Shown piece by piece: positions 15,107 to 43,453 of a stretch of 64,000 nucleotides of DNA (position 1 is its first letter; each line of letters starts with the position of its first letter). The DNA is taken from the NCBI GenBank assembly GCA_043228905.1, contig JBHGNT010000009.1, positions 19,096,001-19,160,000 on the forward strand, in the 5' to 3' direction. The notes beneath the pieces are model-generated. The model saw only the letters and a list, made by a program, of their open reading frames with translations. It was not told the origin of the DNA and made no database searches. The position numbers were made by a program, and so were the translations under genes. Origin of the DNA: Azolla caroliniana (lineage: Eukaryota > Plantae > Polypodiophyta).

Positions 15107-15847
15107 GTTGTCGTAGTGTGAATCACACATTACGTGAAATATGTAAAATACTATATCCGATTTAAAGTACGTATAATAAATAAAATAAAATATTAAAAAT
15201 ATGTTTTACATGCATAAGGCAAGATTCAAACCCTGTACCTCTATCTAGATAAACCCCAACCTTACCATTGTACTAACTTATCCTAAGTGTTTTAAATATA
15301 GATTTAATACATATAAGACCTTTATTTACGCCTACCTTTATTAAAAGGTAAGTCATGCATGTTTTTTAGAATGCGTGAATACTTTATTTATAATAAAAAA
15401 AATGTACACCAATGAAAAATGACTCGTGCACATTTAACGAGCATGAGCACTATATTTAGGAAATAAAAGCATAGTGTAAAAAGGCAACTCATGCACATTT
15501 AGTGTGCATGAACACCCTAGAAAAAGCATGAAGCTATGCTTAGCCTCTTCCATCCTTATATAAGGAGGAGAGAAAGATGTATGGGGGGTTGTTGATTATT
15601 TTACAAGGATTGATTAATAAAAAAATATTCGTGGGATTCACGATTTTGCCATCTATTTCTCCCTTACATTCTAAGTATCAATTAATACACTATACTCGTG
15701 GGATTCACGAGTTTTTCATATCTTTCTTTCTTACAACATATTTCATATTCTTCATTGCCTTAGAATTTTCTTTTCTCCTAGTCCAAAACCTCAGTGGTTG
15801 CCACCAGACTCACGCAAACGATCCGGCGCCAAAAGGCACGACACAAG

Positions 15848-15864
15848 TGGTGAACCTAACGTGA
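15848..15864 (+). promoter_or_regulatory. PBS complementary to the 3' end of tRNA-Trp
   Basis: TGGTGAACCTAACGTGA; the perfect version TGGTGAACCCGACGTGA at 62246 is the reverse complement of plant tRNA-Trp ...TCACGTCGGGTTCACCA. Confidence 0.85.
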
Positions 15865-15881
15865 ACACGGGTGGCAAGGAG

Positions 15882-17931
15882 ATGGAAAATAAATCGGAGG
15901 CTAACAACATGATGATGATGTTCGAGCGGATGCTTCAAGAACAACGTGCGATGATGTCGGAGATAGCGGCGGCAGTAGAGCGACTCATGCAACGGATCGG
16001 GCAATTCAACGGGAAGGACGTATCACGCTATCATCGGGACTACAAGGCGGAAATGATACGATGTGGGATTTTGGAAGGACTACAAGTGATATCCTTCAAT
16101 CGGGTAGCTACCGACGGGCTTCAAGCAAGTATCCACGGGCTACGACAACAAAATCTGACGTGGGAAGCATTTGAAGAGGCGCTAAAGACCACGTTCGCTA
16201 TCGAGGACTCCTCCAAGGCAACGTGGAGAGGATTCGAGGATTGGGTAGAAATGCTGGACAAGGGGATGAAGGTCCTCGATGTGTTTTCGGCATTCGAAAG
16301 TCGGTTCGGGAGGTTGTCTGCGAGAGATCAAGCTATCCTCGCACCAGACAAAGTTATCATGTTCTTACGAGCCGTAGACGTCCGGGACCGGAAGGATCTT
16401 GGAGTGCTTCTAGAGGACACGAATACCGAGAGTGGCCTCACCGAAACATGGGAAAGCGTGCGGGATATCGTCGCGCGATACACAAAGAGGGGGCAATGGC
16501 TTGCCAACGAAGAAAAGAGGGTTTTGGAACTGATCCCAAAATTGAGATTCGGATCGGAAGACCATCAACCGCGGGCTCGGGAAGCTATGACCGAGAAGGG
16601 AATCGATGCAACTATGGTGGAGCAATTGCTGAAGGAGATGGAGAATTTAAAAATCGCGATGGTGAAGAAGTCGGATGACCGTCCCACAAGTTCCAAGTAT
16701 ATGGACCGTCGGTGCATATGGTGCGATAGCACCGAACATGATCAGAGGGATTGCGACGAATACAAGGAAGCGCTACGATGGGATCTTATCTACTACGAGG
16801 GAAATCAGATTCATTCGATGGACTCTCGGAAGCCGCTTCGACCGAACATCCGAAAAGGCAGCATGAAGAAGGTCCTAGAGGAGGAAATAGCGGCGAAGAG
16901 CAATTACACGACAACCGCGGGAATACGTGTCGGGGAGTCATCGGGAGCAAAGGTGTCTTTTTGGCCGGAAGTGCTAGAAAACAACGAGAAAACCGACTCT
17001 AATGAGATCCGAAGCACCGCGGAAGGCATTCGGGAAGCTACGGGATGGGAGTGCCCCGTCGATAAGAATAGCGTATACGCCCTATGTCAATTACATGAGG
17101 TGTATGTGGATGAGAAGCGGCGATGCACGGAGGATGCGGCTGGACCATCGAAGACACCGGAGAGCTGGAACTCCGACGGAAGAGGGAAAGGAAAAACGAT
17201 TCCAGCATTCAAGCTCGCCTCGGACATCGAACAACAAACGGACTTGAAAAAGGTGTTCGGGGAGAGAATCCTCGACAGCCGGGTAGATTTTTCACTTCGA
17301 GAACTACTCGGAATAGCAAAAAAGGAGTTCCATGATCTTATGGATCTCGTAAAATGAAAAAGACAAAATACAGAGGAAAATGCGCCGATGGTGAATGCAA
17401 ATACCATTATGATGAACGACACCGAAGTGGAGGACGAGATTCCGAATTCCCACTATACAAAGCCACACTGGGCACGTGTAACTACGGAGACTCCGGTCCG
17501 AATCGGCAACATCAAAGAGCCCGTGCTAGCATTGATTGATCACGGATCGGAGATCAATTTGATGTCCAAAGAGTTCTACCGGAAGGGGAAGTGGCCTATT
17601 AACACCAATCATGGATGGAAGATCCGGGTGGCCACTAAAGCAATGGAAGATCTATTTGCGGCTTGTCCGGATGTGACGGTGAAGATCGGGGATGTTGAGA
17701 TCGACCAAAATTTCTTCGTATAAGACGAGGTCTCACACTCCGTGATCCTCGGGCAACCCTTTATCATGGCATCACGGATGGAGACGAAGGTGCTCGATAG
17801 CGGTGCGGCTTTTGCACGAATCCGGAGCCAAAACGGAGGGAAATCCGTCCACCGTCCAATTCCTAACGGTGTCGGCAAATTATGAAAGGAACAAGAGAGA
17901 GCTCTTGTCCCAAACAAGGATGGATTTTTAG
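15882..17931 (+). pseudogene. gag: gag-protease, Phygy-like (stops at 17355 and 17721, 7-bp duplication at ~17845)
   Basis: CIWCDSTEHDQRDC knuckle and ALIDHGSEIN protease; the repaired frame ends ..RMDF* at 17931; collinear with the ORF starting at 62280. Confidence 0.88.
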
Positions 17932-20900
17932 AGTGGACTGTTGCGTAGTGGGGAAGTGATAGTCCGAGAAGCCCTGATACCCCACACAGGAGAAAACTCT
18001 CGGAGCAAAACAAGTACGAATCGGTCCGGATGGGGCATCTATGTACATGGCCGTAACCGGAGGAATGAAGAAAGAATACCGAAAAGTGGAGGATAAGTTA
18101 CGGTCGGCATCAATAATAAAAGAAGATGAAGAAATCGTGGGAATAGTTGAAGAAATGTTCTATGGGAGCACGCTACAACGGCTTGAAGAGCTCGCGAAAG
18201 ATACAAGCCAGGGAGACCGGGTAGTCCTGGTGGAATCGGTCGAGATGTACGAGATCATTGTGAAAATGGGGCCGGATATGCTCCGCAAAGAAGAAGCAAT
18301 GGTAAGTATGAAATACAAGACCGTGGAGAAGAAGGTGAATGTGGCCGCGGGACCACTACCTGCCGATAGCGAACAAAAGAGGAAAGAAGTCTCGGGAGAT
18401 CCGACACTTCAGAAGTCCGTGGATATTGGACATGCCTTCAAGGATGAGACCCCGGAAGAAACTTTGGATTGGTGGAGGTGGTTTCCTTTTACAAAATGAA
18501 GAAGAACGATTCCGAGGGATGTTGGAACAACATGGGAAAGCATTTGCATTCACATTGAAGGAGATAGGGTGCGTTGATCCGAAGATAGTGGAGCCGATGG
18601 TGATCTTCATGATTGACCATGTGCCGTGGAACCTGAAGCCGATTCCGGTGCCACGGACACATATTTTGAAAGTCATCAACTTGCTCAAGGAGAAGGTGGC
18701 GATGGGGATTCTAGAGCCATCAAGTGCTCCGTACTCAAATCGATGGTTTACGGTTCCGAAGAAGAATGGGTCACTCCGATTTATCCAAGACTTGCAATCG
18801 GTAAACAAAGTCATGATCCGGAACTCCGGAGTCGGTCCGATAGTGGATGAATTTGCGGAAGCATTTGCCGGTCGAGCGATATACTCCATCGGAGACCTAT
18901 ACTCGGGGTATGACCAATTCCAGCTAGCCGTGGAGAGCCGAGACATCACTACCATGCGGACACCGATAGGATTAGTCCGGATGTGTACGCTACCACAAGG
19001 CGCGACGAACTCGGTCGCACATATGATGAATGCAATGAACAAGGTGCTTCGAGACTGCATTCCGGAGATAACGATGCTTTTCCTGGATGACATTCCGATG
19101 AAAGGATGCGCGGTAGAAGAAAACGATGAAACTATGGATGATCGAGGATGCCGAAAGTTCGTAGTCGACCATATTCGCGATTGCGAGAAAGTGCTTCGAA
19201 AGTTAGAAGATGTGCACCTAACACTTTCCGGGGAGAAATCGGCATTCGAGCAAGAAGAAATATTGGTAGTCGGATATCTATGTGGGCCCTACGGCCGAAG
19301 ACCGTCACCGACCAAGATCGATGCAATTCAAGCTATGAAAGAAAAATGCGAGTCACAATCTGAAGTCCGAAGGTTTCTCGGAGCATGTGCACTCTATCAC
19401 ATATGGATTCCGCACTATGCACATATTGCGGACCCACTCTATCACTTGTTGCGGAAGGGTAAGAAGATTGAATGGAAACCGGAGCATACCAAAGCTGTGA
19501 AGAAGCTCAAGAAATCACTACGGAGGGCAAAAGCACTAAAGAAGTTGAACTATGACCGACTGATCATAGTAATGGTTGCCACGAGTCCAAATGGAATCGG
19601 ATGGGTCATCAATCAAGCCGATCCGGATGGTTCGCGATATCCGATCCGATTCGGAGCAAAGGTTCTCAATGAAAGGCAACGCGGATATGCACAAGTCAAA
19701 AGAGAATTATGGGGAGTCATGTCGGCAATCAAATCGGATCAAGATTATTTGATCGGGGTTGAAGTAGTGATCGAAACGGATTGTCTTCCGATACTCGGGA
19801 TGATGCGGTGTTGCACGATACCGGATGTGGCTATGCTAAGATGGATTGCATATGTTAAGTCGCTTAATCCGGAGGTACGACACATCTCCGGAAAAGACAA
19901 TGCGGTAGCGGATATGCTATCAAGGGCGAGGTTCGGAGATGACATAACCGAATCCGATAATGAAGAAGTTTCCGAAGACTACTTTGCTTCAGAGCACATA
20001 TGCCGGGTGAACATAATCCGAGAATTCTGGAAAGAAGAATACGAGGGAGAAAGCTTGCTGATCGGGAAAGTGCTACAAGAAATCGAGAAATCATCGGACA
20101 ATAAAGAGAAGAGATCCGAGATCTGAAGTAAGAAGCGGCAAGTTCGAAAGTTCTTCTTGAAAAATGGGTTAATAGGAGGGAGCCGAAAAGACCGGATGGC
20201 ATACCACTTCGGGTAGTCGGGACGAAAGAGCAACGAAACCGGATAATGTCCGAATTTCACGAATCCGATTGGGCTGGACATTGAGGAACATGGGCAACTT
20301 TTGTGCAAATCAAACAAAAATATTGGTGGAAGAACATGTACAAAGATATAGCGGAATTCACGGAAAGCTGCGAGAAGTGTCAAATCTACTCCGGAGTTCG
20401 ACACCGAGATGAGTTACATCTGACATTCTCACCGACAATCAATTTCAAATGGATGGTCGATATTGTAGCCATGCCAACTGGGATCAGACAAAAGAAGTAC
20501 TTGATGTTAGCTCGGGAAGATCTCACAAACCAAGTAGAAGGTCGGGCGCTACGAAGGAAAACATGTTCTGCGGTATGCCAATTTCTTTTGGAGGAGGTGT
20601 TTTGCAGGTACAAGTGATTGCGGATCGGGGAGAACTCAACTCTGATAAAGCTAAGGAATTCTTCACCAAACATGGAGTTCGGTTAACATTGACAACGGCA
20701 TACAATCCAGAAGCCAACGGGAAGATTGAACGAGGACATAGTCTGATCGTCAAAGCACTTGCGAAGGCATGCGATGGAAGTGTGAAGAATTGGTCGCAGA
20801 TGCTTCCGTATGCACTATGGGCGGATCGGACGACACATAGCTCCGTAACCGGTTACATGCCGGCAGAACTCATGACCGGACAAGCACCGATAATGCCAAC

Positions 20901-21458
20901 GGAAACCGCGATCGCAACATGGACAATGCTACCGTGGAAGGAAGAGATGAGCCGGAAAGAACTACTAGCGGTCCAGATACGACAACTAGAGGGAAGACCG
21001 GAAGACCGGAAGACGTAGCGGAAGCAATGCGCCGACAACAAGAAGCGCGATTCCGGAATAAAAGCATGTTCGACACAAAGCACTGACTACGACTGCGGAA
21101 GATTGAAGAAGGAGATTGGGTGATTGTCTACGACAGTAGTTTGGATCATCAACATAGAACGATGTGGAAGTTCGCGAAAAGGTGGTTCGGGCCATACGAG
21201 GTTCGGAAAGTTTTCGACAACAGAACTTACCGACTATGCGAGTTGGATGGAACGATGCTACGAGTGTCTATAGCTGGGAAACGGGTGAAGATTTTCAAGA
21301 AGCGGACTGATGAAGAACCTTATGTGATCCTAGACAAGACCGACAAGAAGGAGCAATCGGACGAAGATTGCGGTGATGCGGAAAGCGAAGAAAGTGGATT
21401 ACAACTCATAGTCGACTTAAGGGGAGAATCGGAGGAAGCTTCGGATGAAGATGAATAG
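17932..21458 (+). pseudogene. pol: pol (RT-RH-IN), Phygy-like, with frameshifts and stops
   Basis: ORF 18339-20126 with DLYSGY, LPQG, FLDD, ETDC, NAVADMLSR; IN 20303-21018 (C..C, D..D..E, YNPEANG); FGPY at ~21185. Confidence 0.92.
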
Positions 21459-22251
21459 AAAGCATCGGGGACTTCGGCACATACCGGAGGATGTGCGGGT
21501 TCGGAGAGGGCGAGTGTCGTAGTGTGAATCACACACTACATGAAATATGTAAAATACTATATCCGATTTAAAGTACGTATAATAAATAAAATAAAATATT
21601 AAAAATATGTTTTACATGCACAAGGCAAGATTCAAACCCTATACCTCTATATAGATAAACCCCAACCTTACCATTGTACTAACTTATCCTAAGTGTTCTA
21701 AATATAGATTTAATACGTATAAGACCTTTATTTACGCCTACCTTTATTAAAAGGTAAGTCATGCATGTTTTTTAGAATGCGTGAATACTTTATTTATAAT
21801 AAAAAAATGTACACCAATGAAAAATGACTCGTGCACATCTAACGAGCATGAGCACTATATTTAGGAAATAAAAACATAGTGTAAAAAGGCAACTCATGCA
21901 CATTTAGTGTGCATGAACACTCTAGAAAAAGCATGAAGCTATGCTTAGCCTCTTCCATCCTTATATAAGGAGGAGAGAAAGATGTATGGGGGGTTGTTGA
22001 TTATTTTACAAGGATTGATTAATAAAAAAATATTCGTGGGATTCACGATTTTGCCATCTATTTCTCCCAAGTTACATTCTAAGTATCAATTAATACACTA
22101 TACTCGTGGGATTCACGAGTTTTTCATATCTTTCTTTCTTATAACATATTTCATATTCTTCATTGCCTTAGAATTTTCTTTTCTCCTAGTCCAAAACCTC
22201 AGTGGTTGCCACCTGACTCATGCAAACGATCTGGCGCCAAAAGGCACGACA

Positions 22252-22639: not shown

Positions 22640-25600
22640 TGTCATGATATGGCAAGACTCGAACCCATGACCTTATGGTATATGGGTCGAGCTCTTGAAT
22701 TACGATATTATTTTCATTTATGTTTTATTATAAGAAAGTAATGTATATTCCAGATTTCTCTGGAACATTCTAGAAGTTTCAGGATTACTCCTGACAACAC
22801 TATAAAAGAAGGCACTAGGCATTATGTTGAACCAAATTGGTTCGACGCCAGTCTTAAGCCTCTTAGCCGATTTGTACTTATCTTTGGACATAATATAAGA
22901 GCTGTTGTCATTATCATCTCTCTCTCTCTCTCTCTCCTCTTCTCACATCCTCTCTCGGGAATCTCACGTAGTTCCGTCCTCTTAGTACTAATAGTACTAC
23001 TCTTCTTAGTACTAATTCCATCTCTGCTTTAGTACTATTCTTGACAGTTTGAACCAATTTTTTCCTTTCCTCCAGCCTACTTGTCGTTCTCCCTCATCCT
23101 CCTACCCTTTTCCCTATACTATGGCTACTGTTAGCGCCCAAGAATATCAATCCGTTTTCTCCAAGTTACAGTGCCTAAAAGAAAAGTTTGTTGCCCTGGA
23201 ACAAGAAAAACCAACGGTTGATAGGGGATCTGCAACAAATCGCTCTCGAAAAACAACAAACGCAACAACAACATGGGGAGTTAGCATTACGGGTACAACA
23301 ACTCGAAGCAGCGTTGCAACAACAAGGATCAAGTCCCCAAGGATTTCATAAAGAGCCCAAGATTGGACTTCTTGTGAAATTTGATGGAACGCGATCGCAA
23401 TTTCGGGGATTCCTTAATCAGGTACGCTTAGTCATCCAGATGCATCCTTCCAGATATCCCACTGATGCATCTCGAGTCGGCCTAATAGGCACGTTACTTA
23501 GCAGCTCAGCCTTGGCATGGTTCGCTCCGCTTCTAGAAAAACAATCACCCTTGCTTAATAACTTTGAAGATTTTATTGGTGAGTTTAAAGCCTACTTTGG
23601 AGATACCGACAACATCTGGACGGCGATCAACAAGATCCGAAGATTGCGTCAAGGCGATCGTCCAGCCTCTGCCTACGCGGCGGATTTCCGTCCACTCGTC
23701 TCAGATATTCCTTGGGATGATCAGGCCCTCATGTACCAGTTTCACTACGGCTTCCACAATGATGTCAAAGATCTGCTTTTAACCTTCCCCGAAGAACCAA
23801 AGTCTCTTACGAAGGCAATCAATCGAGCGGTCCGATGCGACAACCGCCTTTTCGAACGGCGTTCGGAGCGTCAGTTACAAATACCACGCTCTCGGCCGGA
23901 ACCCACATATGCCTCAGTCACGGCTAAACCGTTTGCACGCGATGTACCCCAAGCCAATATTCCGACACCGATGGAGATTGACAGCATGCGTTGACGCGGC
24001 CCATTATCGGAAGAAGAAAAGCAACGACGACGTGCCAATCGATTATGTCTTTATTGTGGTGGACCAGGGCATATCGCCATCAATTGTCCCCATAGGCCAA
24101 GAAGACAGGTAAATCAAATCATCTCTTGTACTAAACCCGAGTCAATTCTTCCCTTCGGAGTGTCTGATAGTATTAATAGTACTAATAGAGTGTCAGATAG
24201 TATTCATAGTACTAATAGCCCAAGTATCTCAAAAAAATTTGAAATCCTTAGTCAATTAGATGAAGAGTTAAACGATTGAGTCCAGCCAAAATAGGAGCCG
24301 TTTGGTTGGACAGCAGCCCTAGATCTGTACAGCCCATTAGTGGTTCCATTCCTTCCAAGCAAGTTAGCAATGTGTTCCTAGCCCAAGTCATTGTTAGTAC
24401 TAAAAGTACTCCCCCAGTACCCGTCCTAGCACTCTTAGATTCCGGAGCTAATTCTTGTTTCATGGATCGAAATTTTGCCCAAGCTTCTCAGATATCCCTA
24501 AGAAAACTTCCTTGTCCCGCATTTGTAGTAGTCATTGATGGTCGTCCCATTGCTTCTGGGAATATTGTAGAAGAACTAGAACCCATTCAAGTTGTCCTAT
24601 GTAGTTTTGTGTGTGTAATATCATTTAATATAATTAGTAGTCCAGAGCATCCCATTGTCCTAGGATTACCTTGGTTTCAATTACATAATCCAGCCATAGA
24701 TTGGAGAACAAGAGAAGTCCGATATTGACCACCCCAAGAACCTACTCATCGAGTTTCGACCATCTCACTCCATCATTTACGCGAAGAAGGACACAAGGAG
24801 GCAATGTTCCTATTTGCAATATCAGTACATCCTTCCAGCACTATTAAGAAGGACTCCTCAGTACAACTTCTGGCAAAATATCATCCTTATGCCGATGTAT
24901 TTGACAAGGTAAAAGACGGTACCCTTCCGCATCACCGTCCCTATGACTGTCCCATCGATTTACAACCAGGAACCGAGCCACCATGGGGACCAATTTACAA
25001 CTTGTCACCCACCGAGTTAGAAGTCCTTCGAGCCTACATAGAGGAGACCTTGGCAAGCGGGTTCATCCGTCATTCGGAATCTCCGGCCGGTGCACCCATC
25101 TTCTTTGTCAAGAAGAAAGATGGCTCACTTCGTCTCGTCGTTGATTACCGCGAATTGAATAAGGTCACCATCCGGAATAGGTATGCACTTCCTCTTATAT
25201 CAAGTCTTTTAGAGCGAGTTAATGGTGCCAAGTTTTTTACCAAAATCGATCTACGAGGAGCGTATAACCTCGTGCGGATCCGACCGGGAGATGAATGGAA
25301 GACCGCCTTTCGCATTTCGCGTATACTGTTATGCCATTTGGCTTAACCAATGCACCCGCAGTCTTCCAACACATGGCAAATGATATATTCAGAGATCTCT
25401 TGGATATCTGTTTGATCATTTATCTGGATGATCTATTGATTTATTCGAAGACCCAGGAAGAGCACGATTCTCATGTACTATTAGTATTAAATCGACTCCG
25501 CGAGAATGGTCTTTATGCCAAGCTAGAAAAATGTAGCTTTGACTGCAAGCAAGTGGAATTTCTAGGCTACGTCATCTCCTCAAAGATTATCCTACCCCTC

Positions 25601-28600
25601 ACACAACTTACGAAGAAGGCCCAAGCATTTCTTTGGTCCATTGAAGTAGATATGACTTTTCGGCATGTTAAGAAAGCCTTTACATCAGCACCAATTCTAG
25701 CTCATGTGGATACTAGCAAACCATTCATTATGGAGGCCGATGCTTCCGATTTCGCCCTCGGTAGCATCCTTTCTCAACAAGGAGATAAAGAAGAGTTGCA
25801 TCCGGTGGCTTTCCATTCGCGCAAATTCGATGTTGCCGAAATTAACTACGAAATACATGACAAGGAGTTATTAGCCATCGTGGATTCATTTGTGCAATGG
25901 CGGCATTTCTTCCAAGCAAGTTAGCAATGTGTTCCTAGCCCAAGTCATTGTTAGTACTAAAAGTACTCCCCCAGTACCCGTCCTAGCACTCTTAGATTCC
26001 GGAGCTAATTCTTGTTTCATGGATCGAAATTTTGCCCAAGCTTCTCAGATATCCCTAAGAAAACTTCCTTGTCCCGCATTTGTAGTAGTCATTGATGGTC
26101 GTCCCATTGCTTCTGGGAATATTGTAGAAGAACTAGAACCCATTCAAGTTGTCCTATGTAGTTTTGTGTGTGTAATATCATTTAATATAATTAGTAGTCC
26201 AGAGCATCCCATTGTCCTAGGATTACCTTGGTTTCAATTACATAATCCAGCCATAGATTGGAGAACAAGAGAAGTCCGATATTGACCACCCCAAGAACCT
26301 ACTCATCGAGTTTCGACCATCTCACTCCATCATTTACGCGAAGAAGGACACAAGGAGGCAATGTTCCTATTTGCAATATCAGTACATCCTTCCAGCACTA
26401 TTAAGAAGGACTCCTCAGTACAACTTCTGGCAAAATATCATCCTTATGCCGATGTATTTGACAAGGTAAAAGACGGTACCCTTCCGCATCACCGTCCCAA
26501 TGCGGGACAAGGAACCGAGCCACCATGGGGACCAATTTACAACTTGTCACCCACCGAGTTAGAGGTCCTTCGAGCCTACATAGAGGAGAACTTGGCAAGT
26601 GGGTTCATCCGCCATTCGAAATCTCGAGCCGGTGCACTCATCTTCTTTGTCAAGAAGAAAGATGGCTCACTTCGTCTTGTCGTTGATTACCGCGGATTGA
26701 ATAAAGTCACCATTCGGAATAGGCATGCACTTCCTCTTATATCAAGTCTTTTAGAGTGAGTTAATGGTGCCAAGTTTTTTACTAAAATCGACCTACGAGG
26801 AGTGTATAACCTCATGTGGATCCGACCGGGAGATGAGTGGAAGACCGCCTTTCGCACGCGGTATGGGTATTTCGAGTATACTGTTATGCCATTTGGCTTA
26901 ACCAATGCACCCGCAGTCTTCCAACACATGGCAAATGATATATTCAGAGATCTCTTGGATATCTGTTTGATCATTTATCTGGATGATCTATTGATTTATT
27001 CGAAGACCCAGGAAGAGCACGATTCTCATGTACTATTAGTATTAAATCGACTCCGCGAGAATGGTCTTTATGCCAAGCTAGAAAAATGTAGCTTTGACTG
27101 CAAGCAAGTGGAATTTCTAGGCTACGTCATCTCCTCGAAGATTATCCTACCCCTCACACAACTTACGAAGAAGGCCCAAGCATTTCTTTGGTCCATTGAA
27201 GTAGATATGGCTTTTCGGCATGTTAAGAAAGCCTTTACATCAGCACCAATTCTAGCTCATGTGGATACTAGCAAACCATTCATTATGGAGGCCGATGCTT
27301 CCGATTTCGCCCTCGGTAGCATCCTTTCTCAACAAGGAGATAAAGAAGAGTTGCATCCGGTGGCTTGCCATTCGCGCAAATTCGATGTTGCCGAAATTAA
27401 CTACGAAATACATGACAAGGAGTTATTAGCCATCGTGGATTCATTTGTGCAATGGCGGCATTTCTTCCAAGCAAGTTAGCAATGTGTTCCTAGCCCAAGT
27501 CATTGTTAGTACTAAAAGTACTCCCCCAGTACCCGTCCTAGCACTCTTAGATTCCGGAGCTAATTCTTGTTTCATGGATCGAAATTTTGCCCAAGCTTCT
27601 CAGATATCCCTAAGAAAACTTCCTTGTCCCGCATTTGTAGTAGTCATTGATGGTCGTCCCATTGCTTCTGGGAATATTGTAGAAGAACTAGAACCCATTC
27701 AAGTTGTCCTATGTAGTTTTGTGTGTGTAATATCATTTAATATAATTAGTAGTCCAGAGCATCCCATTGTCCTAGGATTACCTTGGTTTCAATTACATAA
27801 TCCAGCCATAGATTGGAGAACAAGAGAAGTCCGATATTGACCACCCCAAGAACCTACTCATCGAGTTTCGACCATCTCACTCCATCATTTATGCGAAGAA
27901 GGACACAAGGAGGCAATGTTCCTATTTGCAATATCAGTACATCCTTCCAGCACTATTAAGAAGGACTCCTCAGTACAACTTCTGGCAAAATATCATCCTT
28001 ATGCCGATGTATTTGACAAGGTAAAAGACGGTACCCTTCCGCATCACCGTCCCAATGCGGGACAAGGAACCGAGCCACCATGGGGACCAATTTACAACTT
28101 GTCACCCACCGAGTTAGAGGTCCTTCGAGCCTACATAGAGGAGAACTTGGCAAGTGGGTTCATCCGCCATTCGAAATCTCGAGCCGGTGCACTTATCTTC
28201 TTTGTCAAGAAGAAAGATGGCTCACTTCGTCTTGTCGTTGATTACCGCGGATTGAATAAAGTCACCATTCGGAATAGGCATGCACTTCCTCTTATATCAA
28301 GTCTTTTAGAGTGAGTTAATGGTGCCAAGTTTTTTACTAAAATCGACCTACGAGGAGTGTATAACCTCATGTGGATCCGACCGGGAGATGAGTGGAAGAC
28401 CGCCTTTCGCACGCGGTATGGGTATTTCGAGTATACTGTTATGCCATTTGGCTTAACCAATGCACCCGCAGTCTTCCAACACATGGCAAATGATATATTC
28501 AGAGATCTCTTGGATATCTGTTTGATCATTTATCTGGATGATCTATTGATTTATTCGAAGACCCAGGAAGAGCACGATTCTCATGTACTATTAGTATTAA

Positions 28601-31181
28601 ATCGACTCCGCGAGAATGGTCTTTATGCCAAGCTAGAAAAATGTAGCTTTGACTGCAAGCAAGTGGAATTTCTAGGCTACGTCATCTCCTCGAAGATTAT
28701 CCTACCCCTCACACAACTTACGAAGAAGGCCCAAGCATTTCTTTGGTCCATTGAAGTAGATATGGCTTTTCGGCATGTTAAGAAAGCCTTTACATCAGCA
28801 CCAATTCTAGCTCATGTGGATACTAGCAAACCATTCATTATGGAGGCCGATGCTTCCGATTTCACCCTCGGTAGCATCCTTTCTCAACAAGGAGATAAAG
28901 AAGAGTTGCATCCGGTGGCTTTCCATTCGCGCAAATTCGATGTTGCTGAAATTAACTACGAAATACATGACAAGGAGTTATTAGCCATCGTGGATTCATT
29001 TGTGCAATGGCGGCATTTCTTAGAGGGCTCTCCACATCAGGTCGTTGTCTTTAGTGATCATAAAAATTTCTTTATTTCCAGAACGCTCGCGTACTAAATC
29101 GACGGCAAGCTCGGTGGGCGCAATTCCTCACGCGTTTCGACTTCAAAATCACATATCGACCGGGGAAGCAGCAAGGAAAAGCAGATGCACTATCACGGCG
29201 TTCATATCTTGCACACGATGTGGATTTTTGACACCCCGATAGATTCACGGATTACCGATGACATACGTGCAAACTTGAAGACGGATAGTTTTGTTCAAGA
29301 CATCTTGGCGCACATTGATACTTCTCGGGCATCCTGTTCTCAGTCTCAACAACCAGGTATTGACTACTGACAATTCGAATATCATGATGGTTTGTTATTC
29401 TTTAAAAAGCGTGTATATGTCCCCGATTGCTCTTGTCGCCTTCAAATCGTCCAATATTGTCACGACACCCATACGGCGGGACATTTCGGTAGTACTAAGA
29501 AGTTGGAGCTAGTGCAACGATCTTTTTGGTGGCCCCACATGCGCCGTTTTGTCGACGACTACGTTCGGACCTGTGATGCTTGCTGCCGAGCAAAGATGCC
29601 ACGACACCATCCATATGGCTTGTTGGAACCCTTACCGATTCCAAGTAAGCCGTGGCAGTCTATTTGTCTTGATTTTATCACAGATCTACCGGTCTCGCAG
29701 GGGTTCGATGTTATCTTAACCGTCGTCGATCGATATACGAAGATGGCACATTTTGTTCCGTGTACTAAGGCTATCACTAGCGAGGAAACCGCCGCCCTAG
29801 TCATGCGTGAGGTATTTCGGCATCATAGCCTCCCAGACAGTATTATGAGTGACCGAGGCCCGCAATTTTACTCCAAATTTTGGCAGCATCTCTTCGAGAT
29901 GCTCAAGGTCTCTTGCAACCTCTCCTCCGGTTACCATCCTCAGACCGATGGGTAGGCAGAACGAACAAACCAAACGTTGGAGCAATATCTCTGGTGTTTC
30001 CTGAGTTATCAACAGGACGGTTGGGCCGAGATTCTCCACTTTGCGGAGTTTGCGTATAATAATGTTGTTCACTCCTCGACTCAGGTCTCCCCATTCTACA
30101 CTTATACCGGTTCTCATCCTCACTGGTCGGTGATCGACACCCCTGAGCTACCTACCAATCCTCGTGCCGGGGATCATTTTGAGAGACTAAGCAAGATCCA
30201 GACAGATCTCTCGACTCATCTTCGTCATGCTCAATAGACACAGAAGACTTACGCGGATCATCATCGGCTTCCCTCTTTTGCCATCAGAGATCGAGTATGG
30301 CTCTTACGTCGTCACATCAAGACTACTCGACCGTGCGACAAGTTGGATTATCGACGACTCGGTCCTTTCCGTATTACGGGTAAAGTTAATGATGTCACAT
30401 TCCGCCTTGATCTCCCTCCGCAGCTTCAGATACATTCGGTTTTCCATTGTTCTCTTCTTGAACCTTATAAAGCGAACACCATTCCCGATCGTGTTACACC
30501 ACCGCCGCCCCCGCTGGAGTTGGACGCCGTCCCGGAGTATGAAGTTGCGGCCATCCTCGATTCCAAACTTATTCGCAACAAACTTTATTATTTGGTCGAT
30601 TGGGTTGGTTATAGTCTGAGCGAACGCACTTGGGAACCCGTCGAGCATGTTGCCAATGCTCAGGATCTACTTGCTGATTTTCACCGAAAGTATCCGGACA
30701 AACCCGGTCCGCAGACAGCGCCAACTCGTTCCACTCGTCATCTTTAAGGGGGAGATAGTGTCATGATATGGCAAGACTTGAACCCATGACGTTATGGTAT
30801 ATGGGTCGAGCTCTTAACCATCACACCATTTATTGTAATTCATAGGATATTATTTTCATTTATGTTTTATTATATGAAAGTAATGTATATTCCAGATTTC
30901 TGTGGAACATTCTAGAAGTTTCAGGATTACTCCTGACAACATTATAAAAGAAGGCACTAGGCATTATGTTGAACCAAATTGGTTCACCGCCAGTCCTAAG
31001 CCTCTTAGCCGATTTGTACTTATCTTTTCACATAATATAAGAGCTGTTGTCATCATCTCTCTCTCTCTCTCCTCTTCTCACTTCCTCTCTCGGGAATCTC
31101 ACGCAGTCCCGTCCTCTTAGTACTAATAGTACTACTCTTCTTAGTACTAATTCCATTTCTGCTTTAGTACTATTCCTGACA
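22640..31181 (+). mobile_element. Tcn1-like chromovirus copy 2 with internal tandem triplication
   Basis: LTRs 22640-23046 and 30759-31181; TSD GATCG; frameshifted gag 23121-24279; pol rearranged. Confidence 0.95.
24352..29021 (+). repeat. Three tandem ~1.56-kb PR-RT-RH units (starts 24352, 25909, 27464)
   Basis: Near-identical ORFs recur at 1555-bp spacing (25890/27445, 26361/27916, 26802/28357); junction GGCATTTCTT|CCAAGCAAG. Confidence 0.95.
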
Positions 31182-36178: not shown

Positions 36179-36857
36179 GTACTGTGCGTGCAAGGTCATT
36201 GCCTCCATAGCCAGAACGGACAAAGCGTGTGTGAGAGAGAGACACTGCGAGTGCCTTTGTTGTAACCGCCGTGATCGCCGGTTGTGTACGATGAGAAGCA
36301 TCCTCGGCGGGGGGTCTGGTGAAACACAACACCACAATTGACCACCCATGTTGATTCATCGTTGACAAGATTTAGCTCGTTCTGCTCACTAATGAGCAAC
36401 AACTACTCCTCACTTGTCATGATGGCGGAGGTGCCCTTTGTTTCTAGATTCTTCTTCAATTCGGGACCATCAGCTCCGCCTTTGTCTTTCTGGTAGTGCC
36501 ATAAATACTTTTGGAAGAGCCTCAACTTCTCACAATAGAAGCACGTGAGCCACCCCTTGACTTTGACCTCGAACATGACGCCGATCTTCTTCCACAATAC
36601 ATCTGCTTTTGTTTCTTCATTAAAATTGTTATATAGATTGATGTCTATAAAACATTTGATGTAAGGCGCCGTCTTCATATGAAAAACCTCCTTGGTTAAT
36701 GCATTGATCTTTTCGGGCTTTTCATCTCCGAATTGCACCGACAACCAGAGGGTCTTTACACACCAACATATCCCTCATCTTTGACTTCCACACTGAGTAG
36801 TTGGAGCCGGTTAGCTTGAACATTCCTCCAAGATGTTCATCCATCGCACTGATACTA
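36179..36857 (-). pseudogene. gag: Copia element B internal part (PBS, deleted gag, protease), minus strand
   Basis: Degenerate Met-PBS 36846-36857; MDEHLGGMFKLTGSNYSVWK; knuckle remnant CFYCEK; protease TWVVNCGVVFH. Confidence 0.82.
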
Positions 36858-37577
36858 GTTTTTGATAGGAATCGTTCTCGGCCACAACTGACATCCAAAC
36901 TCAATATGGAAGAAAAACACAGAAAATAAGACGACACATTGTGTTAACGTGGAAAACCCTATTCGGGAAAAATCACGGGAACCCACAGACTCCAAACTGA
37001 CGGGAACTCAACGCTCCTTATCCACCACGCTCGGCCACAACCGAGCTTAGAATCATACACAGAAAACGGGAAATAATAAACGACACAAAGAAGAGAAGAG
37101 TACACAGGAGGTTTACATGGAAAACCCCAAACTAGGGAAAAAAACCACGGTGTCGTGAAGAATTTCGGCCAAAGGCGAAAACCGGGAAACATTGGCTACA
37201 TCGGCGGGGTGCAGCGTGTGTACGCACCCATGTACATTTAGTGTGAATATCGAGGGCGCCTTTATGGCACCGAAGAGTAGTCAAGTCGGGATAGATGATC
37301 CCATGGAAGTCGGGATTTGTCCCACGTTGTAACGCATCCCTCTCCTTGTTCTATAAAAGGAAGGGATCGCCCTTTCTGGAGGGGTTGCCCATTTTGCATT
37401 CGAGGGTATCCCGTTAGGTTTAGAGTTAGGTTTCTTCTTCTTCTTCTTCTCCCCCCTTCGTGTTCGTTTAGGGTTTGCTTCAGCTCATCTCTTGCGCAAG
37501 ACCCCGCTCGGCGCGACGAGCCCGTGAGCTCCGCGACGGCGGCTTGGCAGCAGACGACTACTGTAACCTACCTCAGT

Positions 37578-37648
37578 TGTCATGAGATGGCAAGACTCGA
37601 ACCCATGACCTTATGGTATATGGGTCGAGCTCTTAACCATCTCACCAT
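37578..37648 (-). promoter_or_regulatory. tRNA-like A-box/B-box cassette in Tcn1-like LTR (also at 6083, 11320, 30759, 42823; A box deleted at 22640)
   Basis: Minus strand TGGTGAGATGGTTAAG...GGTTCGAGTC with 44-nt spacing. Confidence 0.65.
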
Positions 37649-38017
37649 CTATTGTAATTCATAGAATATTATTTTCATTTATGTTTTATTATAAGAAAGT
37701 AATGTATATTCCAGATTTCTCTGGAACATTCTAGAAGCTTCAGGATTATTCCTGAGAACACTATAAAAGAAGGCACTAAGCATTATGTTGAACCAAATTG
37801 GTTCAACACCAGTCTTAAGCCTCTTAGTCGATTTGTACTTATCTTTCATATAATATAAGAGCTGTTGTCATCATCCTATTTCTCTCTCTCTCTCCTCTTC
37901 TCACTTCCTCTCTCTCGGGAATCTTACGCAGTCCCGTCCTCTTAGTACTAATAGTACTAATAGTACTACTCTTCTTAGTACTAATTCCATCTCTGTTTTA
38001 GTACTATTCCTGACAGT

Positions 38018-38029
38018 TTGAACCAATTT
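38018..38029 (+). promoter_or_regulatory. Self-priming PBS
   Basis: TTGAACCAATTT is the exact reverse complement of AAATTGGTTCAA (37795-37806), ~33 nt after TATAAAA (37762); no tRNA-type TGG start. Confidence 0.85.
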
Positions 38030-38084
38030 TTTCCTCTAGCCTACTTGTCACTCTCCCTCATCTTCCTACCCTTTCCCCTATACT

Positions 38085-39242
38085 ATGGCTACTGTTAGCG
38101 CCCAAGAATACCAATCCGTTTTCTCCGAGCTACAGTGCCTAAAAGAAAAGTTTGTTGCCTTGGAACAAGAAAACCAACGGCTGATAGGGGATCTGCAACA
38201 AATCGCTCTAGAAAAACAACAAACGCAACAACAACATGGGGAGTTAGCGTTACGGGTACAACAACTCGAAGCAGCGTTGCAACAACAAGGATCCAGTCCC
38301 CAAGGATTTCATAAAGAGCCCAAGATTGGACTTCCTGTGAAATTTGATGGAACGCGTTCGCAATTTCGGGGATTCCTTAATCAGGTACGCTTAGTCATCC
38401 AGATGCATCCTTCCCGATATCCCACTGATGCATCTCGAGTCGGCCTAATAGGCACGCTACTTAGCGGCTCAGCCTTGGCATGGTTCGCTCCGCTTCTAGA
38501 AAAACAATCGCCCTTGCTTAATAACTTTGAAGATTTTATTGGTGAGTTTAAAGCCTGCTTTGGAGACACCGACAGCATCAGGACGGCGATCAACAAGATC
38601 CGGCGATTGCGTCAAGGCGATCGTCCAGCCTCTGCCTACGCGGCGGATTTCCGCCTACTTGCTTCAGATATACCCTGGGATGATCAAGCACTAATGGAGC
38701 AGTTTCGCTATGGCTTGCGAAACGATGTCAAAGATCTACTTCTAACTTTCCCCGAAGAACCAAAGTCTCTTACGGAGGCAATCAGTCGAGCAGTTCGATG
38801 TGACAACCGCCTTTTTGAACGGCGTTCAGAACGTCAATTACAGATACCACGCTCTAGGCCAGAGCCCACTTACGCCGCAGTCGCGGCTAAACCGTTTGCA
38901 CGAGACATACCTCAAGCAAATACTTCGACACCGATGGAGATCGATACCATGCGTCGACGCGGCCCGTTATCGGAAGAAGAAAAGCAACGACGACGTGTCA
39001 ATCGATTATGCCTTTATTGCGGTGGACCAGGACATATCGCCATCAATTGTCCCCATAGGCCAAGAAGACAGGTAAATCAAATTGTCGCCTGTACTAAACC
39101 TGAGTCAATTCTTCCCTTCGGAGTGTCTGATAGTAGTAATAGTACTAATAGAGTGTCAGATAGTATTCATAGTACTAATAGCCCAAGTATCTCAAATAAA
39201 TTTGAAATCCTTAGTCAATTAGATGAAGAGTTAAACGATTGA
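38085..39242 (+). CDS. gag: Gag (385 aa): coiled coil, capsid, CCHC zinc knuckle
   Basis: [37 protein letters not shown]. Confidence 0.96.
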   Translation: MATVSAQEYQSVFSELQCLKEKFVALEQENQRLIGDLQQIALEKQQTQQQHGELALRVQQLEAALQQQGSSPQGFHKEPKIGLPVKFDGTRSQFRGFLNQVRLVIQMHPSRYPTDASRVGLIGTLLSGSALAWFAPLLEKQSPLLNNFEDFIGEFKACFGDTDSIRTAINKIRRLRQGDRPASAYAADFRLLASDIPWDDQALMEQFRYGLRNDVKDLLLTFPEEPKSLTEAISRAVRCDNRLFERRSERQLQIPRSRPEPTYAAVAAKPFARDIPQANTSTPMEIDTMRRRGPLSEEEKQRRRVNRLCLYCGGPGHIAINCPHRPRRQVNQIVACTKPESILPFGVSDSSNSTNRVSDSIHSTNSPSISNKFEILSQLDEELND

Positions 39243-42200
39243 GTCCAGCCAAAATAGGAGCCATTTGGTTGGACAGCAGCCCTAGATCTGTACAGCCCAT
39301 TAGTGGTTCCATTCCTTCCAAGCAAGTTAGCAATGTGTTCCTAGCCCAAGTCATTGTTAGTACTAAAAGTACTCCCCCAGTACCCGTCCTAGCACTTTTA
39401 GATTCCGGAGCTAATTCCTGTTTCATGGATCGAAATTTTGCCCAAGCTTCTCAGATATCCTTAAGAAAACTTCCTTGTCCCGCATCTGTAGTGGTCATTG
39501 ATGGTCGTCCCATTGCTTCCGGGAATATTGTAGAAGAATCAGAACCCATTCAAGTTGTCCTAGGTAGTTTTGTGTGTATAATATCATTTAATATAATTAG
39601 TAGTCCAGAGCATCCCATTGTCCTAGGATTACCTTGGCTTGAGTTACATAATCCAGCCATAGATTGGAGAACAAGAGAAGTCCGATATCGACCACCCCAA
39701 GAATCAACTCGCCGAGTTTCGACCATTTCACTCCATCAACTACGCGAAGAAGGACCCAAGGAGGCAATGTTCCTATTTTCCATATCAGTACATCCTTCCA
39801 ACACTATTAAGAAGGACTCCTCAGTACAACTTCCGGCAAAATATCATCCTTATGCCGATGTATTTGACAAGGTAAAAGCCGGTACCCTTCCTCATCACCG
39901 TCCCTATGACTGTCCCATCGATTTACAACCAGGAACCGAGCCACCATGGGGACCAATTTACAACCTGTCACCCACCGAGTTAGAAGTCCTTCGAGCCTAC
40001 ATAGAGGAGAACTTGGCAAGCGGGTTCATCCGTCATTCAAAATCTCCGGCCGGTGCACCCATCTTCTTTGTCAAGAAGAAAGATGGCTCACTTCGTCTTG
40101 TCGTTGATTACCGCAGATTAAATAAAGTCACCATCCGGAATAGGTATGCACTTCCTCTTATATCAAGTCTTTTAGAGCGAGTTAATGGTGCCAAGTTTTT
40201 TACTAAAATCGACCTACGCGGAGCGTATAATCTCGTGCGGATCCGACCGGGAGATGAGTGGAAGACCGCTTTTCGCACGCGGTATGGGCATTTTGAGTAT
40301 ACTGTTATGCCGTTTGGCCTAACCAATGCACCCGCAGTCTTCCAACACATGGAAAATGATATATTCAGAGACCTCTTGGATATCTGTTTGATCATTTATC
40401 TGGATGATCTGTTGATTTATTCGAAGACCCAGGAAGAGCACGACTCTCATGTACTATTAGTACTAAAGCGACTCCGCGAGAATGGTCTTTATGCCAAGCT
40501 AGAAAAATGTAGCTTTGACTGCAAGCAAGTGGAATTTCTAGGCTACGTCATCTCCTCAAAGGGCATCGCCATGGATCCAGCTAAGATCCAAACTGTACTA
40601 GAGTGGCAAATTCCACGGTCGGTACGAGATGTACAATGTTTTCTAGGTTTTGCTAACTTCTACCGTAAGTTTATACAGGATTACTCGAAGATTATTTTAC
40701 CTCTCACACAACTTACGAAGAAGGGCCAAGCATTTCTTTGGTCCATTGAAGCAGATATGGCTTTTCGGCATCTTAAGAAAGCCTTTACATCAGCACCGAT
40801 TCTAGCTCATGTGGATACAAGCAAACCATTCATCATGGAGGCCGACGCATCAGATTTCGCCCTCGGTAGCATCCTTTCTCAACAAGGTGATAAAGAAGAG
40901 TTGCATCCGGTGGCTTTTCATTCGCGCAAATTCGATGTCGCAGAAATCAACTACGAAATACATGACAAGGAGTTATTAGCCATCGTGGATTCATTTGTAC
41001 AATGGCGGCATTTCTTAGAGGGCTCTCCACATCAGGTCATTGTCTTTAGCGATCATAAAAATCTTGCTTATTTTCAGAACGCTCGCGTACTAAATCGACG
41101 GCAAGCTCGGTGGGCGCAATTCCTCACGCGTTTCGACTTCAAAATCACATATCGACCGGGGAAGCAGCAAGGAAAAGCAGATGCACTATCACGACGTTCA
41201 TATCTTGCACCTCGTCCTGGTGAAGCAACATTTGATAATCAAAAGCAAGTAATCTTGGGACCAACACGATTGCACACGACGCGGATTTTTCACACCCCGA
41301 TGGATTCACGGATTACCGATGACATACGTGCAACCTTGAAGACGGATAGTTTTGCTCAAGACATCCTGGCGCACATTGATACTTCTCGGGCATCCTGTTC
41401 TCAGTCTCAACAACCAGGTATTGACTACCGACAATTCGAATATCATGATGGTTTGTTATTCTTTAAAAAGCGCGTATATGTCCCCGATTGCTCCTGTCGC
41501 CTTCAAATTGTCCAACATTGTCACGACACCCATACGGCGGGACATTTCGGTAGTACTAAGACGTTGGAGCTAGTGCAGCGATCTTTTTGGTGGCCCCACA
41601 TGCGCCGTTTTGTCGACGACTACGTTCGGACCTGTGATGCTTGCTGCCGAGCAAAGATGCCACGACACCATCCATATGGCTTGTTGGAACCTTTACCAAT
41701 TCCAAGTAAGCCATGGCAGTCTATTTGTCTTGATTTTATCACAGATCTGCCGGTCTCGAAAGGGTTCGATGCTATCCTAACCGTCGTCGATCGATATACG
41801 AAGATGGCACATTTTGTGCCATGTACTAAAGCCATCACTAGCGAGGAAACCGCCGCTCTTGTTATGCGTGAGGTTTTTCGGCATCATGGCCTCCCAGACA
41901 GTATTATCAGTGACCGAGGCCCGCAATTTGTCTCCAAATTTTGGCAGCATCTCTTCAAGATGTTCAAGGTCTCCTGCAACCTCTCCTCCGGCTACCATCC
42001 TCAAACCGACGGACAGGCGGAACGAACAAACCAAACACTGGAGCAATATCTCCGGTGTTTCCTGAGTTATCAACAGGACGATTGGGCCGAGATTCTCCAC
42101 TTTGCGGAGTTTGCGTATAATAATGCTATTCACTCCTCGACTCGGGTCTCCCCATTTTTCGCTTATACCGGTTTCCATCCTCGCTGGTCGGTGATCGACA

Positions 42201-42811
42201 CTCCGGAGCTACCTACCAACCCTCGTGCCGAGGATCATTTGGAGAGGCTACGCAAGATCCAGATAGGTCTCTCTACTCACCTTCGTCATGCTCAACACAC
42301 ACAGAAGACTTATGCGGATCGTCATCGGATTCCCTCCTCTTTTGCCATCGGAGATCGAGTATGGCTCTTACGTCGTCACATCAAGACTACTCGACCGTGC
42401 GACAAGTTGGATTATCGACGACTCGGTCCTTTCCATATTACGGGGAAGATTAATGATGTCACCTTCCGCCTTGATCTCCCTCCGCAGCTTCAGATACATC
42501 CGGTTTTCCATTGTTCTCTTCTTGAACCTTATAAAGCAAACACCATTCCCGATCGTGTGACACCACCGCCGCCCCCACTGGAGTTGGACGCCGGCCCGGA
42601 GTATGAAGTTGCTGCCATCCTCGATTCCAAACTTGTTCGCAACAAACTCTATTACTTGGTCGATTGGCTCGGTTATAGTCCGAGTGAACGTACTTGGGAA
42701 CCCGTCGAGAATGTTGCCAATGCACAAGATCTTCTTGCTGATTTCCACCGAAAGTATCCGGACAAACCCGGTCCGCAAGTAGCGCTGACTCGTTCCACTC
42801 GTCGTCTTTAA
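39227..42811 (+). CDS. pol: Pol (PR-RT-RH-IN-chromodomain), -1 frame relative to gag, probably expressed by frameshift
   Basis: 1190-aa open frame with LLDSGA, YLDD, EADASD, H..H..C..C, DDE, GPF, and chromodomain EYEVAAILD..YLVDWLGY..TWEP. Confidence 0.96.
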   Translation, partial: RVKRLSPAKIGAIWLDSSPRSVQPISGSIPSKQVSNVFLAQVIVSTKSTPPVPVLALLDSGANSCFMDRNFAQASQISLRKLPCPASVVVIDGRPIASGNIVEESEPIQVVLGSFVCIISFNIISSPEHPIVLGLPWLELHNPAIDWRTREVRYRPPQESTRRVSTISLHQLREEGPKEAMFLFSISVHPSNTIKKDSSVQLPAKYHPYADVFDKVKAGTLPHHRPYDCPIDLQPGTEPPWGPIYNLSPTELEVLRAYIEENLASGFIRHSKSPAGAPIFFVKKKDGSLRLVVDYRRLNKVTIRNRYALPLISSLLERVNGAKFFTKIDLRGAYNLVRIRPGDEWKTAFRTRYGHFEYTVMPFGLTNAPAVFQHMENDIFRDLLDICLIIYLDDLLIYSKTQEEHDSHVLLVLKRLRENGLYAKLEKCSFDCKQVEFLGYVISSKGIAMDPAKIQTVLEWQIPRSVRDVQCFLGFANFYRKFIQDYSKIILPLTQLTKKGQAFLWSIEADMAFRHLKKAFTSAPILAHVDTSKPFIMEADASDFALGSILSQQGDKEELHPVAFHSRKFDVAEINYEIHDKELLAIVDSFVQWRHFLEGSPHQVIVFSDHKNLAYFQNARVLNRRQARWAQFLTRFDFKITYRPGKQQGKADALSRRSYLAPRPGEATFDNQKQVILGPTRLHTTRIFHTPMDSRITDDIRATLKTDSFAQDILAHIDTSRASCSQSQQPGIDYRQFEYHDGLLFFKKRVYVPDCSCRLQIVQHCHDTHTAGHFGSTKTLELVQRSFWWPHMRRFVDDYVRTCDACCRAKMPRHHPYGLLEPLPIPSKPWQSICLDFITDLPVSKGFDAILTVVDRYTKMAHFVPCTKAITSEETAALVMREVFRHHGLPDSIISDRGPQFVSKFWQHLFKMFKVSCNLSSGYHPQTDGQAERTNQTLEQYLRCFLSYQQDDWAEILHFAEFAYNNAIHSSTRVSPFFAYTGFHPRWSVIDTPELPTNPRAEDHLERLRKIQIGLSTHLRHAQHTQKTYADRHRIPSSFAIGDRVWLLRRHIKTTRPCDKLDYRRLGPFHITGKINDVTFRLDLPPQLQIHPVFHCSLLEPYKANTIPDRVTPPPPPLELDAGPEYEVAAILDSKLVRNKLYYLVDWLGYSPSERTWEPVENVANAQDLLADFHRKYPDKPGPQVALTRSTRRL

Positions 42812-43453
42812 GGGGGAGATAGTGTCATGAGATGGCAAGACTCGAACCCATGACCTTATGGTATATGGGTCGAGCTCTTAACCATCTCACCATCTATTGT
42901 AATTCATAGAATATTATTTTCATTTATGTTTTATTATAAGAAAGTAATGTATATTCCAGATTTCTCTGGAACATTCTAGAAGCTTCAGGATTATTCCTGA
43001 GAACACTATAAAAGAAGGCACTAAGCATTATGTTGAACCAAATTGGTTCAACACCAGTCTTAAGCCTCTTAGTCGATTTGTACTTATCTTTCATATAATA
43101 TAAGAGCTGTTGTCATCATCCTATTTCTCTCTCTCTCTCCTCTTCTCACTTCCTCTCTCTCGGGAATCTTACGCAGTCCCGTCCTCTTAGTACTAATAGT
43201 ACTAATAGTACTACTCTTCTTAGTACTAATTCCATCTCTGTTTTAGTACTATTCCTGACATCAGTCCGGCTCAAAGCCGGGAGTGTATTCTTCTTATATA
43301 TATACATATACGTTTGCATCTGTCTGTGTATATTGGCGTTTTTGTTGGTGTCGGGTGCTCCCCCCCTTTCCTGCGTTTCCTGTACATGAGGGCGTGAGAT
43401 GCGCGCGTGTGTGCGTGTGCGTGTGTGTGTGTGCGCGCGCGAGTCGGTGTTAA

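Follow-up and report, generated by a model that had tools for sequence, protein, structure and literature searches.

The LTRs of a retrotransposon at 37578-43260 of the window, by which we mean the whole 64,000-nt stretch of Azolla caroliniana DNA analysed here, carry near their outer edge and on the minus strand the A and B boxes of a tRNA gene, facing away from the element that bears them. This raises the question of what such an outward unit is, how widely it is shared among related elements and for what benefit it might be kept.

The carrier element and its antisense cassette

The carrier, hereafter family A, is an intact Ty3/gypsy chromovirus of the Tcn1 type, 5683 bp long and read on the plus strand, flanked by the target-site duplication TCAGT and bounded by two identical LTRs of 438 bp each (37578-38015 and 42823-43260). 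Its gag ORF (38040-39242, stop to stop, plus strand) encodes a Retrotrans_gag domain and a zinc knuckle. Its pol ORF (39227-42811, plus strand), which lies in the -1 frame and overlaps gag by 16 nt (39227-39242), encodes protease, RT, RNase H, integrase and a C-terminal chromodomain, in the Pfam order PR-RT-RH-INT-Chromo. The aromatic-cage residues Y, W and Y are read in this chromodomain, at what we take to be the cage positions. A polypurine tract is located at 42810-42819 (plus strand), and a TATA box, the putative Pol II promoter (37762-37768, plus strand), lies 114 nt from the A box and points in the opposite direction. The self-primer AATTGGTTCAA (37796-37806, plus strand) follows 34 nt past the TATA box and is complementary over 11 nt to the primer-binding site (38018-38028, plus strand), which is not a tRNA site; inspection of the bases after the 5' LTR reveals no tRNA primer site.

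The preliminary description of this locus had called the element Tcn1-like, in agreement with the self-priming, chromodomain and LTR length found here. Size, 438-bp LTR, 5-bp duplication, aromatic-cage chromodomain and self-priming are those described for plant Tcn1 chromoviruses (PMC2864245; PMC6317226), a clade with a self-priming layout found in mosses and club-mosses (Neumann 2019, PMC6317226). Taken by themselves, the clades of the elements described here would suggest a host among the non-seed plants, likely a bryophyte. The R-region motif and primer-site layout are as in SM-Tcn1 (Novikova 2010, PMC2864245), a likeness judged by eye, and the placement of family A is that of an integrase tree of 38 rows with no named Tcn1 reference. 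The passages of these papers devoted to the clade mention no tRNA-like or Pol III element, whereas family A has one; by eye, no cassette is seen in the SM-Tcn1 LTR (Selaginella, supplement of PMC2864245). The bases after the SM-Tcn1 LTR show by eye the same complementarity to a site past the TATA box, in an element for which the relevant part of PMC2864245 had reported no evidence of self-priming; in L013, L016, L020, L025 and L029, which belong to the survey of relatives described below, the bases after the LTR are likewise complementary to a site about 30-40 nt past the TATA box. Family A is very abundant in sequencing runs under several organism codes. The copy at 37578-43260 sits inside a Copia-type LTR (36850-37577 and 43261 onward), in a window where Gypsy and Copia elements are inserted into one another and no host gene was seen.

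The cassette itself is of tRNA length (37582-37654, minus strand, tRNA positions 1-73), without a cloverleaf. Its A box TGGTGAGATGG (37637-37647, minus strand) has one mismatch to the consensus used, its B box GGTTCGAGTCT (37593-37603, minus strand) ends 15 nt inside the LTR edge, and the distance between them is 44 nt. The minus-strand sequence quoted in the preliminary description is recovered at 37647-37589, with the two boxes at tRNA-like spacing that it had reported (37647-37637 and 37603-37593), and the A-box variants that it cited for the copies at 6083, 11320 and 30759 are correct. The motif AGGTC occupies tRNA positions 44-48 (37607-37611, minus strand). Upstream of the cassette lies an A/T-rich tract (86%; 37655-37704, minus strand), the putative TFIIIB region, with CAA beside it at 37654-37652. 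The 3' LTR holds an identical cassette (42827-42899, minus strand). There is no T-run between B box and LTR edge at the 37578 LTR, and the nearest T4 run downstream of the 3' LTR cassette is 1368 nt away, within pol.

Six family A LTR copies are present in the window, one of which, at 22640, had been missed before, and both boxes are kept in five of the six. The copy at 6083 (cassette at 6087-6158, minus strand) has a full A-box match and reaches 27.2 bits; the cassette of the copy at 11320 lies at 11324-11395 (minus strand), and that of the copy at 30759, in which AGGT is mutated and the hairpin described below is weakened, at 30763-30835 (minus strand). In the 22640 copy, the B box alone remains (22655-22665, minus strand), the A box being lost by a 23-nt deletion. 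This copy is the 5' LTR of another family A element (22640-31181, duplication GATCG), whose LTRs are only 89% alike and in whose interior a 1555-bp segment stands three times in tandem. An inverted fragment of the family A cassette was also observed at 80-134 (plus strand) of locus L043, where it immediately precedes the start of gag in a more distant chromovirus.

In contigs from four sequencing runs, the main A-box variants of family A (at a frequency of at least 3%) fall on free positions or change the box toward the consensus, and the variant at 37641 makes up 40-99% of the depth. These data come from contigs only; they list no variants over 37578-37613, a stretch subject to edge bias, a variant at 37586 that is known from copies in the window being unlisted as well.

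A/B-box scoring gives 23.4 bits for the 37578 cassette. The box consensus used agrees with that in the corresponding parts of PMC10886601 and PMC11700998, and an A-B spacing of 38-60 nt was permitted; among 9308 windows of masked background, 208 reach 14 bits, 13 reach 18.4 and one reaches 22.8. A sequence-only profile was independently built from 128 tRNA genes of phages, taken irrespective of the box pattern, and the LTR cassettes are its first 12 matches in 561 kb (E = 0.02 for the 37578 copy and 0.008 for the 6083 copy). The tRNA-likeness put forward in the preliminary description is upheld by these scores and by the profile. ARAGORN calls no tRNA at the cassette, yielding mostly noise with relaxed thresholds, and Rfam gives no tRNA or 5S match there. 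The miRNA-type Rfam matches at the cassette were discarded, being below the gathering score and reflecting a generic hairpin. When the skeleton pattern was sought in viral contigs, phage DNA was hit and 78 of 120 matches fell inside tRNA genes; these scans revealed no close relatives of family A or of family B (see below). No donor tRNA could be named, blastn against phages giving only chance-level matches of 18-27 nt.

A hairpin overlapping the B box had also been described. It is present, but it is not local: it is a long imperfect structure of about 62 nt that includes both boxes (37583-37644, either strand) and is specific to family A. Its z value is -6.1 to -6.9 in the 37578 copy and -1.6 to -2.0 in the 30759 copy. 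As values in the other families are -2.0 to +0.8, the hairpin is absent there and was rejected as a conserved feature.

Distribution and conservation in two Gypsy lineages

An integrase alignment gave 79 metagenome loci. The 3' LTR start was located in 28 of them, 25 of which, with at least 90 nt, were scored; the remaining 51, mostly distant, were covered by a whole-locus scan alone. An antisense A/B pair is found in 10 of the 25 scored relatives (14.0-27.2 bits), with an A-B distance of 43-45 nt in every positive although 38-60 nt was allowed, and 13 of the 25 are without the cassette. Positives cluster on the integrase tree. In the clade of the window's element (100/99), whose families share 63-94% integrase identity, all six families with LTR sequence are positive, the LTR sequence of L018 and L022 being too short to score. 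In a second clade (99/96), two of five loci (L030 and L033) have the cassette, two more (L025 and L026) have a degenerate form of it and L029 has none. LTR scoring finds it missing in an eight-locus chromovirus clade (100/100) and in L023, L028, L031 and L038. Judged from these sequences, one gain followed by losses and two gains would both fit the tree distribution.

A T-run terminator lies within the LTR in three of eight Tcn1 families (L016, L019 and L020), and no T4 is found inside the LTR in the five others (family A, L013, L015, L030 and L033). Some copies, namely L016 and those at 15275 and 21681, have C56T in the B box, a change that would weaken TFIIIC binding. In the L013 family, a second antisense A/B pair of 20-21 bits was observed in the protease-RT linker of pol (30-83 and 5354-5406 of L013, minus strand); it occurs in two copies of this family, and no other family showed it. 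AT-rich chromoviruses of fungal type (L079, 5321-5375, and L082, 2309-2362, both plus strand) have a tRNA-like A/B cassette in sense orientation, accompanied by T-runs and about 30 nt after an apparent polypurine tract and LTR start.

The prediction that the boxes would be more conserved than the flanking U3 is borne out across families: mean pairwise identity is 0.55 for the A box, 0.74 for the B box and 0.87 for positions 44-48, versus 0.34 for the spacer (anticodon arm) and 0.27-0.38 for the flanks. Since this comparison is anchored on the boxes, the weight lies on the unscored features, spacing and AGGT. Across the 10 families, A44 G45 G46 T47, G53 T54 T55 and A58 (tRNA numbering) are invariant. 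AGGT at positions 44-47, noticed after the fact and not part of the score, is present in 10 of 10 families versus 2 of 260 background box pairs, and a strict pattern finds it in 24 of 128 unselected phage tRNAs. The D-loop GG lies 34-35 nt from the B box in all 11 rows and the anticodon arm is exactly 17 nt long across families. In sequence, the anticodon arm and positions 49-51 are free to vary.

The stems tell of loss. Acceptor pairs (1-3 of 7 across families) and anticodon pairs (0-4 of 5) are not those of the cloverleaf of a functional tRNA, and pairing is at chance in the acceptor stem (24/70), the anticodon stem (22/50) and the free T-stem (13/30). Pairing exceeds chance in the D-stem, where 27 of the 40 cells that have changed on both sides are paired (p 0.023 by permutation, 0.008 for Watson-Crick pairs), in a test of four stems and one subset that is uncorrected and ignores relatedness. 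The A/T content at LTR nt 95-145 is 0.74-0.92 in the nine cassette loci measured versus 0.42-0.66 in 13 others, a contrast that may be confounded by different hosts; plant tRNA genes likewise have an A/T-rich upstream region, as described in parts of PMC11700998 and PMC13578239. With boxes 30-60 bp apart and an A/T-rich tract upstream, the cassettes have the layout of a plant type-2 Pol III unit.

The cassette is not confined to chromoviruses. Family B is a Phygy-like, non-chromovirus Gypsy (15109-22251, plus strand, 7.1 kb) with a broken pol and LTRs 97.6% alike (15109-15843 and 21515-22251), and its RT-RH is 24% identical to that of family A. Its named relatives are from Riccia, Adiantum and Calypogeia (liverworts and a fern), the likeness to Phygy being assessed without a reference tree. 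The right flanks of its copies are ACGG, ACGG and ACGT and the duplication is ACGG, which fits target sites of the NCGN type, a preference given as a mark of Phygy along with a short element, a pol that spans its interior and no chromodomain.

A scan of the window and of 90 loci recovered antisense cassettes in family B, all on the minus strand. They are as strong as those of family A at 628, 13807, 15275 and 21681, and weaker at 61702. They lie in the 5' LTR (15211-15282, with a T5 run 22 nt past the B box, inside the LTR), in the 3' LTR (21617-21688), in a solo LTR (466-1193, duplication ACGG; cassette at 564-635, the best tRNA-profile match, E 2e-4) and in the LTRs at 13646-14353 (13743-13814) and 61436-62241 (61638-61709). 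The cassette, located 162-267 nt inside the LTR, is thus present in five of the six family B LTRs whose outer part is present, and T4-T5 runs follow 22-26 nt past the B box in all five. It has been deleted from the sixth copy (4488-5909), which itself contains an apparent solo LTR of another family, at an ACGT site near 4616. Downstream of the TATA box, family B LTRs also hold one or two copies each of the palindromic motif CTCGTGGGATTCACGAG (933-1089, 5647-5715, 14159-14227, 15599-15734, 22004-22142 and 62069-62137). In the window's Copia LTRs the cassette was not found (best score 14.0 bits).

No chromodomain was seen in family B, in ORF translations read by eye and with only two ORFs scanned against Pfam. 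The link to the chromodomain drawn in the preliminary description is therefore not supported, as family B has the cassette and other chromoviruses are without it.

A likely Pol III-type promoter and its possible benefit

From its sequence, the cassette is likely a maintained Pol III-type promoter. It is nevertheless dispensable, as it is missing in many relatives and has been lost from single copies (22640 and 4488). That this tRNA-derived, outward A/B skeleton is kept as a Pol III promoter in order to hold the element's Pol II promoter open, or shielded from silenced chromatin, is a reading to which we give about even chances.

TFIIIC would bind the A and B boxes and place TFIIIB upstream of them, on the A/T tract that separates the cassette from the Pol II TATA box 114-285 nt further in. 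Pol III would then start near the A box and run outward. Where a T-run follows, in family B and in three of eight Tcn1 families, the product would be a non-decoding RNA of about 90-100 nt; where none follows, it would be a read-through antisense RNA. The bound complex might keep the element's own Pol II promoter open and shielded from the surrounding silenced chromatin, and, because U3 is copied into both LTRs every cycle, every new insertion would carry the barrier to its 5' edge. As the unit faces outward, it cannot transcribe the element, and as its RNA would moreover differ widely between families, the shared selected property would most simply be the bound complex. TFIIIC is reported to relieve nucleosome repression and to bind insulator-type sites in yeast and animals (PMC11346459, in part). 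The least certain step is that the benefit would be chromatin opening or insulation rather than the RNA.

The strict spacer length, the invariant AGGT and the D-stem covariation exceed what a TFIIIC site would need, box spacings of 30-60 bp being tolerated by such a site according to the relevant part of PMC11346459, and they point to constraint at the RNA level. The cassette could be a Pol III promoter of which the RNA is selected, either a partly tRNA-shaped short RNA or an antisense RNA across U3, polypurine tract and the end of pol, tuning silencing, copy number or reverse transcription. We hold this to be a minority possibility, though the foremost of the alternatives. The D-stem signal (p 0.023, uncorrected), the 17-nt anticodon arm and AGGT would fit it, as would the fixed distance of the family B terminators and, as far as the account in PMC3993851 goes, the Pol III RNAs that foamy viruses make from U3. 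Acceptor, anticodon and free T-stem pairs are nevertheless at chance, five of the eight Tcn1 families have no T4 in the LTR, so that product lengths would range from about 90 nt to more than 1 kb between families, and the hairpin belongs to one family only.

The constraint might alternatively act on the sense genomic RNA, in which the U3 sequence has complementarity with the D, variable and T loops of host tRNAs, so that a bound tRNA would bridge the genome ends during reverse transcription. The antisense orientation by the polypurine tract, the co-linear spacing and the conservation of AGGT fit such a hybrid, and precedents exist in the bipartite primer site of Ty3 and in a tRNA-like stretch in the U3 of HIV-1. 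We nevertheless regard it as improbable: family A self-primes and needs no tRNA, the free variation of positions 49-51 and of the anticodon arm would not be expected if they paired with a single tRNA, the A/T tract before the cassette and the T-runs after it are features of a promoter, and the sense cassette of the fungal-type relatives cannot pair with a tRNA.

It is equally doubtful, and already disfavoured by the data, that a tRNA or SINE once inserted in an ancestral LTR left the cassette as a neutral relic, or that the likeness arose by chance from the hairpin. 'Not a few LTRs' in Repbase have tRNA-like pieces, for which SINE insertion has been proposed (Kojima, PMC10886601, in part), many relatives are without the cassette or have copies that lose it, and the B box of family A lies within a strong hairpin. 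A relic would hardly explain, however, that identity drops to 0.27-0.38 in spacer and flanks but the boxes, their spacing and AGGT are kept, or that the same position and orientation are found in two lineages at 24% identity, and the other families are without the hairpin (z -2.0 to +0.8). Finally, Pol III factors could attract the integration of other elements or of the element's own family, much as Ty3 and DGLT-A target Pol III start sites at tRNA genes (PMC5006619, in part), but this is very unlikely. In the window, five LTRs of family A and five of family B have a whole cassette, and in none of them does an insertion lie on the immediate upstream side of the A box; the one family B LTR hit by a nested insertion (near 4616) has no cassette, and such a landing pad would not explain selection on the carrier.

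Known Pol III promoters in LTRs and significance

The reading as a promoter that opens or shields chromatin can be set beside several known systems. Helenus TRIMs (TRIMp3) likewise have LTR sequence of tRNA origin, in which the A and B boxes are conserved but a functional tRNA fold is lacking (Kojima 2024, PMC10886601). From what that study sets out on them, they are nevertheless short (about 0.3-1.3 kb) and non-coding, and a role in transcribing the element itself is proposed for their Pol III promoter, whereas the carriers here are protein-coding elements of 5.7-7.1 kb (gag and pol being open in family A), the cassette faces outward and a separate TATA box and self-primer mark the sense start. 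The autonomous partners of Helenus are expected there to use Pol II and not to share such LTR sequence (PMC10886601). The Cassandra TRIM also shows a long-maintained Pol III promoter inside plant LTRs; in the sections of PMC7215508 and PMC10886601 that deal with it, this promoter is of 5S type (box A and box C), in a non-autonomous element, and drives the element's own transcript, whereas here it is of tRNA type, antisense and in an autonomous element. The cassette therefore belongs to neither Helenus nor Cassandra, but it resembles both at the level of promoter capture.

The U3 miRNA units of foamy viruses (Kincaid 2014, PMC3993851, in part) are closer in that they are A/B-box Pol III units placed in U3 beside the Pol II promoter of an autonomous element, but they belong to an animal retrovirus and give conserved hairpin RNAs processed to miRNAs, whereas the cassettes here have a tRNA-gene skeleton and no cross-family hairpin. 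In tRNA-gene and TFIIIC-site insulators, A and B boxes likewise stand beside a Pol II unit where heterochromatin likely ends; the cases known from the relevant part of PMC11346459 are fixed host loci of fungi and animals, whereas the present candidate travels with a plant retrotransposon. In the literature searched, no antisense cassette of tRNA type is reported for the LTRs of Tcn1 or Phygy elements; Repbase entries and the element supplements of PMC6317226 may bear on this point.

Pol III promoters in LTRs are thus known for tiny non-coding elements, which they transcribe, and a different function must be sought for a tRNA promoter that is conserved, faces outward and occurs in two autonomous lineages unrelated to each other. 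We tentatively propose, as a possibility still short of even odds, that two or more unrelated Gypsy lineages of autonomous elements in non-seed plants may have adopted an outward tRNA-gene promoter as a standard U3 module. It would act as a portable TFIIIC/Pol III barrier that keeps copies transcribable in heterochromatin, and it would scatter thousands of Pol III sites through the host genome. The moss chromovirus RLG1 is described, in the part of PMC7466625 concerned, as lying in heterochromatic islands and yet being transcribed. Families with and without the cassette, together with the deletions in single copies, offer natural controls. If the cassette is a barrier or an opener, it would be the first candidate for TFIIIC insulation in plants and would offer a testable account of how elements that dwell in heterochromatin, the moss chromoviruses among them, stay expressed. 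Many Pol III sites and antisense RNAs that escape tRNA scanners would then lie hidden in bryophyte-type genomes.
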